Assembly: GCF_003334785.1 (NCBI RefSeq)
Contig: NZ_QOWV01000014.1
Length of the DNA: 64,000 bases
Source: Escherichia coli
Lineage (GTDB): Bacteria > Pseudomonadota > Gammaproteobacteria > Enterobacterales > Enterobacteriaceae
Reading direction: 5' to 3' (one strand)
This document shows, one piece after another, positions 41,125 through 50,974 of this stretch (within the stretch, counting starts at the first letter, position 1; every line of letters begins with the position of its first letter). The notes beneath the pieces were generated by a model that saw nothing but the letters and a program-made list of their open reading frames with translations, did not search any database and was not told the DNA's origin. Both the position numbers and the translations under genes were made by a program.

Positions 41125-41162
41125 TGCCGGATGCGGCGTGAACGCCTTATCCGGCCTACAAA
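41125..41162. repeat. REP (repetitive extragenic palindrome) unit
   Basis: tgccggatgcggcgtgaacgccttatccggcctacaaa; identical 38-mer recurs at 63059..63096. Confidence 0.85.
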
Positions 41163-41167
41163 TGCTA

Positions 41168-41272
41168 TCAACGCGCTCGGTCAGTCCCCTCGCCCCACCG
41201 GGGAGAGGGTTAGGGTGAGAGGGAACCCTGGGCACTAAGCCAACATTCGCCAACATCCCCCCCTCACTCTGA
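41168..41272. repeat. GC-rich inverted-repeat element between ybdD and cstA
   Basis: gtcccctcgccccaccggggagagggttagggtgag matches the reverse complement of 48661..48698 at about 36 of 40 positions; internally self-complementary. Confidence 0.6.
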
Positions 41273-47213: not shown

Positions 47214-48389
47214 TTAATGCAATCCAAAAACGTTCAACATGGTAGAAAGTTTGACGCCTGTTTCGCGCCACTCACCCAACGGTGACGACGCAGGCACAAT
47301 CCCCGCTCCGGCAAACAGACGCACCTGATTTTCCCGCAGCTTCGCGCAGCGGATGGTCACCACCCATTCGCCGTTACCTTCGCTGTCACACCAACCCACA
47401 ATGCCGCCAAACAGTTCGCGGTCGAACGGTTCCAGTTCAGCAATAACCTGGGTCGCGGCCTGATGCGGGAAACCGCTCAGCGCGGGGGTCGGATGCAGCA
47501 GACAGGCCAGAGTCAGTGCGTTTTCTTGCGAATTCGCTTTACCTTCAAAGGGAGTTGCGAGATGCCACAGCGTCGGCGTGGTGATCAGCTGTGGAGAAGA
47601 AGGAACGTGTAACTCACTACTGCGTTCGCGCAGTACCTCTTTCATCGCCTGAGTCACCAGTTCATGTTCATGGCGATCTTTTTCTGACGCCAGCAGACGA
47701 TTACCTGCTTCGCGATCGAGCACTTCATCCGGCTGACGACGCGCGGAACCGGCTAACGGAATGGAGCTAAAACGCTCGCCGTCTTTACGTAGCAGCAGTT
47801 CCGGGCTGGCCCCCAGCAGGACGCCACCATCAGCCAGCGGAACATGGAAGTTGTAACTAACCGGGTTTTGCGCAATCAACCGTTCCAGCAATACGCCACT
47901 ATCAATGGCGGCGTCAGTGGTGATATCAATCAACCGTGACAACACCACTTTGTCGACCTGCGGCGTGGCGGTAAGTGCGGCGGCGCGGGCAACCATCTGT
48001 TCAAACGTGGTTTGCTCCGGAATTGCCTGGCGTTCCACCACATTCAGCGACTGGCTGCGGGTGAAACGGCGTGCGGAAGCTTGTTTTTCCTGACGGGAGA
48101 ACGACTGCCAGGATTCAGGAATATACAGCGACGAAGGCTGACGTGGATCGAAGGGAATCGCCCCGACCATCACCGGATTTTTGATGCCCTGCGCTTTGGC
48201 ATCGGCAAACAGCGCGGCGAGTTTTTGCTGGAAGGGACTGTCGGGCGAATCCCCGTTCACAGCCGGTTCATCGAAGCGGGCGAAACATCCTGACGTCGTA
48301 AAACTGCGGTACGGCGACATAAAGAAAAAGCGATTGGGCGCAAGTGTTGCCATGGTCTGCTGTACTTCCTCAGCCAGTGACGTATCCAT
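47214..48389 (-). CDS. entC: isochorismate synthase
   Basis: ORF 47214..48401; start at [11 protein letters not shown]... (391 aa). Confidence 0.93.
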
Positions 48390-48399
48390 ATCATCCTCC

Positions 48400-48445
48400 A
48401 CAAAATGATAAAGGCTTTAATAATGATTATCATTTATATTTTCGG
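48400..48445. promoter_or_regulatory. Fur box in the divergent entC / fepB control region
   Basis: ataatgattatcattt, near-palindromic match to GATAATGATAATCATTATC, just upstream of entC start. Confidence 0.7.
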
Positions 48446-48593
48446 TCGCTAACCTAAAAGCAAACGCGCACTATGTCAACTCTTGAGGTAACGCAATCTG
48501 CAACTCGGGGTTGCATCTGGTTGTGGTTACAATGAAAATGAGAAGCATTATTGATGGATTCGCATAAGCGCAATGTGATGTCCTGCGCCGTTC

Positions 48594-48700
48594 TGCCCCC
48601 TCTCCCTTCCAGGGTGAGGGCTGGGGTGAGGGTTAATGTTCGCACCAGTGCTGGCTGTTCCCCTCACCCTAACCCTCTCCCCAAAGGGGCGAGGGGACGG
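48594..48700. repeat. GC-rich inverted-repeat element within the fepB upstream leader
   Basis: ccctctcccttccagggtgagggctggggtgaggg ... ccctcaccctaaccctctccccaaaggggcgaggggac; arms are mutually complementary; second copy of the family at 41168..41272. Confidence 0.6.
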
Positions 48701-48763
48701 ATTGTGCGCTTTGTCGAATTTGTCATTACGCCCTTAACCTTATTAATAACAGGAAGCTGATTT

Positions 48764-49720
48764 GTGAGACTCGCCCCGCTCTACCGCAACGCCCTTCTAT
48801 TAACAGGACTTTTGCTTTCAGGAATAGCCGCAGTTCAGGCCGCTGACTGGCCGCGTCAGATTACTGACAGCCGTGGCACACATACACTGGAAAGCCAGCC
48901 GCAGCGTATTGTTTCCACCAGCGTCACCCTGACCGGCTCACTGCTGGCGATTGATGCTCCGGTGATCGCCAGCGGCGCGACCACGCCGAATAACCGCGTC
49001 GCGGATGACCAGGGCTTTTTACGCCAGTGGAGCAAGGTGGCGAAAGAACGCAAACTGCAACGGCTCTATATCGGCGAACCGAGCGCCGAAGCCGTTGCCG
49101 CGCAAATGCCGGATCTGATTTTAATTAGCGCAACCGGCGGGGATTCGGCGCTGGCACTGTATGATCAGCTTTCCACCATCGCCCCGACATTAATCATCAA
49201 TTACGACGACAAAAGCTGGCAGTCGCTGTTAACGCAACTTGGCGAAATTACCGGGCATGAGAAACAAGCGGCAGAGCGGATTGCGCAGTTTGATAAGCAA
49301 CTGGCGGCGGCGAAAGAGCAAATCAAATTACCGCCGCAGCCGGTCACTGCCATTGTCTATACTGCCGCTGCACACAGTGCCAATCTCTGGACGCCAGAAT
49401 CAGCACAAGGGCAGATGCTGGAACAACTCGGCTTTACGCTGGCGAAGTTACCCGCAGGGTTAAATGCCAGCCAAAGTCAGGGTAAACGCCATGACATCAT
49501 TCAGCTTGGTGGGGAAAATCTGGCTGCAGGGTTAAATGGCGAGTCACTATTCCTGTTCGCCGGTGATCAGAAAGATGCCGATGCTATTTATGCTAATCCG
49601 CTGCTCGCGCACCTGCCTGCAGTACAAAACAAGCAGGTTTATGCGCTGGGAACCGAGACGTTCCGTCTGGATTACTACAGCGCCATGCAAGTGCTGGATA
49701 GGCTTAAGGCGCTGTTTTAA
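48764..49720 (+). CDS. fepB: periplasmic ferric-enterobactin-binding protein
   Basis: 318-aa ORF, GTG start, signal peptide; divergent from entC. Confidence 0.93.
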
Positions 49721-49723
49721 GCA

Positions 49724-50974
49724 TTAACTGTCGGACGCTGTCACCTGCGGCGGCGTCTGGCGAAAATGTCGCAACTCCACCAGCACCAGCAATAACAACA
49801 CGCCGATAATCAACAAACCAAAACCGCTCGCGCTTGCGGAAGCAACCGGTGTCATCATCGCGCCCAAACCACCCAGCAGCGCCGCGCCTATGGCATCGCC
49901 CGTCACGTTCTGCGCCGTCCACAAACCGTTAATCCGCCCTAACATCGCTTCCGGGGTTTGCGTTTGCAGCATTGTGTATTGCAGCAACGAGCTGACCGCA
50001 CTCAACCAGCCGAACAGCGCCAGACAAACCACGCCTAAAATCCACATCGGCATCAGGCCAAACAGACCAATGGCGAGGAACGATCCCAGCGTGGAGAGCA
50101 GCATCAATAACCCTGGTCGCGCACTATGTGCCAGCTTCCCGCTGGTTAACGCACCAATAGCCGCGCCGAGCGGGATCGCCGCGTAGAGAAAACCAATCTG
50201 TGCCGCTGACATCTGCCAGTTGTCAGCCAGCGCCGGATACAGTACCCGCACCGCGCTCGCCATCGTCAATAAACCACCCAGCAGCGCAATCCCGCCCACC
50301 AGCGGGCTGGCAAGCAGAAAACGAAATCCTGCCAGTAATGATTTCAACGGATGCTCACGCGGCTGCGGTGGCGGTGGCAACGCCGGAAGGCTTAACAACG
50401 GTAGCAAGGTAATAAACGTGCCCGCCGCCGCCAGCCCGTAGTTCCAGGCTACGCCACCGGTCGCCAGCAATAAACCGCCAATCATGGGCGAAATCACCGA
50501 CCCCAGACGCACGGTCAACATGGTGATCGCCCCGGCCTGCATTAAGTTTTCACGCCCTACCAGTGCTGGTGTCGCCGCCAATAGCGCCGTAACGCCAAGC
50601 GATGCGAAAAAACCATCCCATAAACCAAGTAAATAGATTGCCAGCAATGACGGCTCCGGCAGCAGTGCATTAAGGCACAGTCCAATGAAGCCAATGCCAC
50701 AGGTGCCGCGCGCCAGCAAAATCACTTTTTTGCGCTCATAGCGATCCGCCAGCACACCGCCGACCATCAGGCCAACAAACATCGCGCCGCCGGTCAGCGT
50801 CACCGAAAGCCCCACCTGCCAGGTGGAATGTGTCATCATCTGGATCTGCACCGGCACCGCGACGCCGAGCAAACCCAGAGACACAATTGAGATGAAACGA
50901 GCGAGGAATACTGCGCGAAACGCCGGGTGCGTTTTCAACAGGCTGAGGTTAAGCAGCCAGGATTGTTTATTCAT
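49724..50974 (-). CDS. entS: MFS enterobactin exporter EntS (YbdA)
   Basis: 416-aa 12-TM ORF divergent from fepD. Confidence 0.92.

Follow-up and report, generated by a model that had tools for sequence, protein, structure and literature searches.

A strain-variable BoxC repeat pair in the fepB leader of Escherichia coli

Upstream of fepB in Escherichia coli lies a GC-rich inverted repeat that raises a simple question: is it a regulatory part of the fepB leader, or a sequence that happens to reside there and is tolerated? We addressed this question in a 64-kb stretch of E. coli DNA (64,000 nucleotides, hereafter ‘the window’), in which entC ends at 48389 (minus strand), fepB occupies 48764–49720 (plus strand) and entS occupies 49724–50974 (minus strand). 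A first-pass annotation, made from the letters alone, had described a GC-rich inverted repeat at 48594–48700, proposed that it forms a very stable RNA hairpin within a long fepB leader, and suggested that it belongs to a dispersed family. The repeats in question, variously called BoxC, PIT and TMECO, have gone for some thirty years without an assigned function.

Results

The inverted repeat and its predicted fold

An inverted-repeat search resolved two complementary arms of 41 nt each, at 48592–48632 and 48661–48701, which are 28 nt apart and 76% complementary, with the G-rich arm on the fepB mRNA strand. The predicted RNA fold of 48590–48705 has a free energy of –68.6 kcal/mol (z = –5.71), against a mean of –47.1 ± 3.8 kcal/mol for 200 dinucleotide-preserving shuffles, none of which was as stable (0/200). 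The inverted repeat is thus a real, non-chance feature, and both its position and its predicted stability are much as the first-pass annotation had them. The hairpin is retained when 48450–48790 is folded whole and is lengthened there by an outer inverted repeat. The parts surrounding the two main arms are as follows.

48549–48572, no strand assigned: left outer arm, an imperfect inverted repeat of 48705–48728 (24 nt, 71% complementary) that pairs in predicted leader folds and has homologous arms in other copies
48634–48659, no strand assigned: spacer between the repeats, with a small hairpin of its own (GCACCAGTGC), conserved at ygfF-gcvP, alx-sstT, yggN-yggL and gldA-yijF according to alignments and the consensus fold
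48705–48728, no strand assigned: right outer arm, ending ...TTTGTCATTA; the end motif TTGTCAT(C) is common to other full copies

The consensus fold retains the hairpin in all full copies of the element and contains no covariation. Because every core pair is invariant, this test is uninformative about selection on RNA pairing. A search of 48000–49200 against Rfam 15 returned no family at the gathering threshold, the only look-alikes being microRNA precursor models at 20–29 bits against thresholds of 60–105.

The hairpin is an inverted pair of BoxC repeats

The hairpin consists of a type B and a type A BoxC (PIT, TMECO) repeat in inverted orientation. BoxC was described in the 1990s and the PIT (potential intrastrand triplex) element in 2000, and the repeat was later renamed TMECO (Bachellier et al. 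1990s; Hoyne et al. 2000; Holder et al. 2015, PMC4666352). Among the known stem-loop families of E. coli, BoxC is given as 56 bp long with 32 copies (Bachellier 1999, as cited). The TMECO consensus, CCCTCNCCC-N3-6-GGGNGAGGG-N3-GGGNGAGGG (Holder et al. 2015), has two exact matches in the window, at 48598–48632 (plus strand) and 48661–48695 (minus strand), with 0 expected from shuffles. Over this region the sequence shows 100% identity to E. coli K-12, for which the position in NC_000913.3 equals 673274 minus the window position, and both repeats are identical in sequence to entries in the list of 23 MG1655 copies in Table 1 of Holder et al. 2015.

48598–48633, plus strand: BoxC/PIT/TMECO repeat of type B (second loop CTG), TMECO #8; NC_000913.3 624676–624641
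48660–48695, minus strand: BoxC/PIT/TMECO repeat of type A with one mismatch (second loop TTA), TMECO #7; NC_000913.3 624579–624614

The fepB mRNA carries the G-rich strand of TMECO #8 and the C-rich strand of TMECO #7. Inverted pairs of a type A repeat (TTA loop) with a type B repeat (CNG loop) are reported at five K-12 sites, the fepB pair included (Holder et al. 2015). The RefSeq annotation of MG1655 has no repeat feature at the fepB leader, and the identification therefore came from the literature. Because the pair is catalogued as TMECO #7 and #8, the kind of element and the fepB copy were both known already; finding the BoxC pair in the fepB leader is the re-discovery of a catalogued repeat and in itself adds little that is new. 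The earlier idea of a dispersed family was right, and the family now has its name.

Published properties of these repeats bear on what they could do at fepB. TMECO copies lie on either strand, between genes of all classes and without functional correlation, and oligonucleotides of the consensus type form stable intrastrand triplexes in vitro, as judged by CD and NMR (Holder et al. 2015). In earlier functional tests, PIT elements showed neither promoter nor terminator activity and no effect on RNA polymerase, according to the summary of Hoyne & Maher 2002 given in Holder et al. 2015.

The element lies inside a 217-nt leader

The fepB start site has been mapped experimentally to position 623950 of NC_000913.2 (minus strand, 18 reads, upstream sequence ...ATGAAAATGAGAAGCA), with a UTR of 217 nt (Kim et al. 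2012 PLoS Genet, supplementary file 2). With an offset of +777 between NC_000913.2 and NC_000913.3 (entC start 624108 versus 624885), this start corresponds to 48547 in the window, upstream of the element rather than downstream of 48700. The element therefore does lie within the fepB leader, as first proposed, in a leader that is shorter than the roughly 300 nt of the earlier estimate. That estimate was off because the Fur box on which it was anchored, at about 48419–48435, belongs to entC: it is Fur box 2, within the entC footprint. The resulting assignment is as follows.

48395–48443, no strand assigned: entC Fur operator (footprint), with Fur box 2 at 48420–48437
48511–48539, plus strand: inferred fepB sigma-70 promoter, with –35 TTGCAT at 48511–48516, a 17-nt spacer and –10 GAAAAT at 48534–48539
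48528–48558, no strand assigned: fepB Fur operator (DNase I footprint), with Fur box 1 AAAATGAGAAGCATTATT at 48535–48552
48547, plus strand: fepB transcription start (A), experimentally mapped (Kim et al. 2012 PLoS Genet)
48751–48756 and 48764–48766, plus strand: fepB Shine–Dalgarno sequence AGGAAG and GTG start codon, both outside the hairpin

The footprints, 623939–623969 for fepB and 624054–624102 for entC in NC_000913.2, are those of Table 3 of Chen et al. 2007, which cites Brickman et al. 1990; AAAATGAGAAGCATTATT as Fur box 1, and the reverse complement of 48420–48437 as Fur box 2, are from Pakarian & Pawelek 2016. The entC start, at 624054 of NC_000913.2 on the minus strand, corresponds to window position 48443 (Kim et al. 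2012 PLoS Genet). The fepB promoter, which scores 8/12 and falls under the threshold of a consensus scan, was assigned from its spacing to the mapped start. The supplementary data of the Cappable-seq, transcriptome-compendium and ROSE studies contain nothing for the fepB start site. For annotators, these assignments correct the promoter and operator map of the entC–fepB spacer.

Two further features of this region came to light. At the O157:H7 equivalent of 48530, a C-to-T change turns GGTTACAATG into GGTTATAATG and creates a perfect TATAAT just upstream of the inferred K-12 –10 element, a change that, judging from the sequence, might move the fepB promoter of this lineage or make it stronger. 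Two open reading frames, of 69 and 63 codons and both unannotated in RefSeq, cross the repeat at 48551–48760 (plus strand) and 48454–48645 (minus strand); they resemble the spurious frames that GC-rich repeats commonly produce.

A GC-rich hairpin as strong as this one, placed in a 5′ leader, could act as an attenuator or terminator that limits read-through into fepB. This reading is close to refuted. The interval 48300–48850 contains no terminator-like site (0), and the stem is followed by GGAUUGUGCGC rather than by a U-run. The published absence of terminator activity in PIT elements also speaks against it, as does the finding that a reporter placed downstream of the complete fepB–entC spacer, leader included, is expressed and iron-regulated (Pakarian & Pawelek 2016).

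About half of E. coli genomes lack the element at fepB

When 48400–48800 was compared with 5426 complete E. coli genomes, 2755 covered at least 80% of it. The remaining genomes covered 54%, as two pieces with a joint span of 215 bp where the query has 401, and the reverse query with the empty allele gave spans of 301 versus 487 bp. At the nucleotide level, the empty site reads GAGAAGCATTA|ACTTCATTAATAAC and the filled site GAGAAGCATTA|TTGATGG...CGCCCTTA|ACCTTATTAATAAC, a 186-bp difference with identical flanks. The filled and empty alleles, when aligned, define the following segments.

48551–48736, plus strand: inserted segment, the full BoxC composite, 186 bp, +5 to +190 of the fepB mRNA
48548–48550 (left) and 48734–48736 (right copy), no strand assigned: TTA flanking the insertion

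With TTA at both ends, the insertion boundary can be slid by 3 nt. The flanking TTA, seen at the fepB locus only, may be a target-site duplication. The insertion point falls between +4 and +5 of the fepB mRNA, so the leader measures 217 nt in carriers versus 31 nt in genomes without the element. The filled allele is found in K-12 MG1655, 55989, DEC9B and O111:H8; the empty allele is found in O157:H7, Nissle 1917, O25b:H4-ST131, EC14 and the most divergent match (94.7% identity). In the E. coli phylogeny, B2 branches early and A and B1 are sister groups. From this phylogeny and the distribution among E. coli strains, we infer a single insertion in an ancestor of the A/B1 group, and not a deletion.

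The last 2 nt of Fur box 1 and the last 8 nt of the fepB footprint lie inside the insertion. By direct count, Fur box quality is the same in the filled and empty alleles, at 15/19 matches to GATAATGATAATCATTATC. With 8 nt of the Fur footprint falling within the element, the two alleles could differ in operator strength. Of about 2721 carriers, 2501 have a fepB copy with 99% identity or more, which is compatible with constraint and also with simple recency.

Several copies carry marks of slippage. In O111:H8 the fepB copy has lost 6 bp (ACCCTA), in isolate F467 a stretch of 51 bp within it is duplicated in tandem, and deletions between internal direct repeats have removed 75 bp at alx-sstT (EC17GD31) and 64 bp at hrpB-mrcB (strain 12089), each leaving a single short hairpin. 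These products reflect the instability typical of the BoxC family.

Such instability is central to a second alternative, in which the element acts as DNA. Each repeat would form a purine-motif triplex and each pair a cruciform; the consequences would be polymerase stalling or slippage, and the element, mainly a local source of genetic instability as published for TMECO, might perturb initiation or elongation just after +1. The triplexes formed in vitro fit this idea, as do the slippage products just described, the greater variability of TMECO loci relative to control spacers (Holder et al. 2015) and the retention of triplex-compatible bases in the three 9-mers even in distant phyla, among the matches listed. 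Against it, in vivo DMS footprinting gave no support for a stable triplex, and Holder et al. 2015, from their own data and from Hoyne & Maher 2002 as they present it, report no effect on polymerase in vivo. Purine-motif triplexes, moreover, do not form in RNA (Holder et al. 2015). Instability is also a property of the sequence and not a role at fepB. Taking both sides together, we regard a DNA-level action at fepB as quite improbable.

The repeat unit extends beyond the published motif

The median E. coli genome matches parts of a 193-nt query covering the element at 14 places. The fepB copy, in the entC–fepB spacer, and every other copy that we fetched are intergenic. Paired copies at fepB, ygfF-gcvP, alx-sstT, yggN-yggL and gldA-yijF can be aligned over about 182 nt, with 68–86% identity. 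This homology takes in the spacer of 26–28 nt and the outer arms (left, approximately GATTG.TAACAAA...; right, approximately ...TTGTCATC), whereas single copies have 45–100 nt in common around the type A core. Aligned in this way, the copies outline a repeat unit that exceeds both the published 36-nt motif and the 56-bp BoxC, namely an imperfectly palindromic sequence of about 180 bp with the BoxC pair as its core. Because Holder et al. 2015 found no consensus in TMECO flanks, the shared unit of about 180 bp is a small addition to what was known. We found no description of this unit, of the 186-bp insertion or of the strain polymorphism at fepB in the papers on BoxC/PIT/TMECO that we consulted.

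An nhmmer profile of the full unit, built from the five full copies, detected one further, degenerate copy in the window.

41168–41271, minus strand: degenerate second copy in the cstA-ybdD spacer (nhmmer E = 2e-15, profile positions 60–165; gapped alignment)

The type A half of this copy is well kept (41184–41223) apart from an extra GA, and its type B half has decayed until it is barely recognizable. The recurrence of the right arm in inverted orientation at 41184..41219, reported in the first pass, is thus genuine, although what recurs is a degenerate copy. A direct search with the exact 38-mer of that arm matches only itself at up to 3 mismatches, and it takes the profile to find the decayed copy. 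The cstA-ybdD copy is missing from the published list of 23 because it fails the strict consensus. The profile found no copies in the 64-kb window other than those at fepB and at 41168–41271. A sequence at about 41127–41165, which we take to be a REP from a comparison by eye with the REP consensus, adjoins the second copy.

Copies on plasmids are rare, at 10 of 34801 places. One of them, at 1627–1664 of the 155-kb E. coli plasmid NZ_CP074792.1, matches the type A arm perfectly over 38 nt; no association of TMECO with plasmids was reported by Holder et al. 2015.

TMECO has been reported in proteobacterial genomes (Holder et al. 2015). In a scan of species-representative genomes, the core CCCTCTCCC-loop-GGGAGAGGG-nnn-GGGTGAGGG turned up far outside the enterobacteria, and among the matches listed its free positions are almost always T, A and T. 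In Polaromonas sp. YR568, a TTG-loop copy and one with a CGG or CAG loop form inverted pairs, an arrangement like that in E. coli; the spacers of these Polaromonas pairs are not conserved. Among the matches listed, one Armatimonadota MAG carries dozens of core copies at least, and the core also occurs in MAGs of Planctomycetota, Desulfobacterota/Deltaproteobacteria and Nitrospirales.

Variation at other loci and the question of mobility

None of five further loci (ygfF-gcvP, alx-sstT, yggN-yggL, gldA-yijF and hrpB-mrcB) provided a second case of a clean empty site with a flanking duplication. At ygfF-gcvP, the neighbouring region is absent from non-carriers too; at alx-sstT, the only variants are internal deletions or wholesale replacement; and at hrpB-mrcB, 12 unrelated or remnant bases stand in the place of the element. 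The replacement at alx-sstT is seen in strain P27_L1, where the whole spacer, BoxC pair included, gives way to about 390 bp of unrelated GC-rich sequence, an allele common to a sizeable group of strains.

Two of these loci vary in another way. At yggN-yggL and gldA-yijF, the same position is occupied, depending on the strain, either by the BoxC composite of about 180 bp or by one or two REPs (BIME), the REP form occurring in K-12-like and other strains. Both alleles at yggN-yggL retain the outer arms (AGATTGATAACAAA and TTTGTCATCGCCC), from which it appears that the core was exchanged within one slot.

Between distant inverted motifs we found no transposase; the ORFs there are ordinary genes. 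An all-against-all comparison of 3792 ORFs from 120 loci, a limited sample, likewise revealed no protein family recurring beside the motifs other than common paralogue families. A miniature inverted-repeat transposable element (MITE) would resemble the BoxC composite in its presence/absence polymorphism with precise boundaries (186 bp). The terminal arms at 48549–48572 and 48705–48728 are only 71% complementary, the TTA flanks are present at one locus, and a related autonomous element or transposase was not found in this limited sample. Because no second locus gave a clean empty site with a flanking duplication, the composite is not proven to be a MITE.

Discussion

Our results are best explained if the fepB BoxC pair is a tolerated passenger, a copy of a dispersed and unstable palindromic repeat, and not a dedicated regulator of fepB. 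We consider this reading probable, with room for doubt. It is favored because the quality of the promoter and Fur box is unchanged, the ribosome-binding site lies outside the structure and half of the species does without the element. We propose that, in an ancestor of lineages that include K-12 and 55989, a BoxC composite of about 180 bp entered the fepB transcription unit between +4 and +5, just downstream of the promoter and Fur operator, and that lineages such as O157:H7, Nissle 1917 and ST131 have retained the site without interruption. Where the element is present, it would be co-transcribed with fepB, lengthening the leader from 31 to 217 nt, and the leader RNA would fold into a closed hairpin of about 175 nt that begins 5 nt in from the 5′ end, with the ribosome-binding site outside it. 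Any influence on fepB would then be a side effect of a stable 5′-proximal stem on mRNA decay or processing.

Predicted folds of the leader are in keeping with such tolerance. In the leader that begins at the mapped start, the element is predicted to form a closed domain from +6 to about +180. The mean unpaired probability of the Shine–Dalgarno sequence is predicted at 0.33 with the element and 0.35 without it, and that of the region from –20 to +15 at 0.46 and 0.48, respectively, suggesting that the ribosome-binding site is equally accessible with or without the element. Genomes that lack the 186-bp segment keep fepB behind the same promoter and operator. Transcription probably passes through the element at full efficiency, and its presence appears to be nearly neutral.

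The same folds could also be read as a cis-acting RNA element that tunes fepB post-transcriptionally, such that carriers would differ from other strains in FepB output. Possible routes include protection of the 5′ end from decay by RppH and RNase E, an RNase III site, or an RNA G-quadruplex in the type B arm (GGGUGAGGGCUGGGGUGAGGG). Indeed, a stem located 5 nt from the 5′ end could, on the predicted fold, alter 5′-end-dependent decay, and a long imperfect duplex could be a substrate for RNase III. The fold is very stable and self-contained from +6 of the mapped transcript, the consensus hairpin is common to all full copies and the G-rich arm is on the mRNA strand, as this account would have it. 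Yet half of E. coli lacks the insertion at fepB, the invariant core pairs provide no covariation that would point to selection on RNA pairing, copies of the family occur on either strand beside all classes of genes without functional correlation, as noted above, and the predicted accessibility of the ribosome-binding site is the same in both alleles. We found no report of fepB leader processing in the literature we consulted, and the main text of Altuvia et al. 2018, on RNase III targets, makes no mention of fepB. A dedicated RNA element at fepB is therefore, in our judgment, unlikely.

A more far-reaching possibility combines several of our observations. BoxC pairs would be the cores of a mobile, non-autonomous element of about 180 bp that rivals REP/BIME for intergenic slots and has spread, or been independently maintained, far beyond the Proteobacteria, and its insertion at +5 of fepB in lineages that include K-12 and 55989 would change the output of FepB to a measurable extent, by way of mRNA stability or processing. 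We hold this combination to be a long shot. If it were true, a lineage-specific 5′-UTR structure would alter enterobactin uptake relative to B2 and E strains. For the passenger reading as for its rivals, the locus has a practical advantage: the same promoter, operator and gene occur with leaders of 217 and 31 nt, so the effect of the repeat on transcription, mRNA decay and genetic instability can be tested directly.

Comparison with known systems

Compared with the BoxC/PIT/TMECO family as published, the fepB element is not different in kind. It matches the consensus, corresponds to list entries #7 and #8, is intergenic, pairs a type A with a type B repeat in inverted orientation as at the other four K-12 paired sites and stands at a strain-variable locus. 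What the fepB copy adds is the shared unit of about 180 bp, which takes in the spacer and outer arms, and a clean 186-bp insertion at +5.

REP/BIME sequences share several features with BoxC, being short, GC-rich extragenic palindromes that are present in many copies and often co-transcribed with flanking genes. At yggN-yggL and gldA-yijF they also occupy the same slots as the BoxC composite, which alternates there with one or two REPs, and a REP directly adjoins the degenerate copy at 41168–41271. In contrast, the BoxC element has no GCCGGATGCGGCG-type stem, REPs being found only beside the second copy or as alternative alleles, and BoxC numbers about 20–30 copies against several hundred for REP. 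To our knowledge, BoxC has no RAYT-type transposase partner, and we found none among the ORFs near the motifs in the limited sample of 120 loci.

ERIC/IRU sequences and the Correia elements of Neisseria are miniature inverted-repeat elements that land in transcribed spacers. They resemble the BoxC composite in being imperfect palindromes of 100–200 bp that are present in some strains and absent from others, are co-transcribed and have a long predicted RNA hairpin. They differ in that the terminal inverted repeats of BoxC are weak (71% over 24 nt), its TTA flank is seen at a single locus and we know of no parent insertion sequence. For Correia elements, processing by RNase III and the creation of promoters are documented; by analogy, the long BoxC hairpin could in principle affect mRNA processing.
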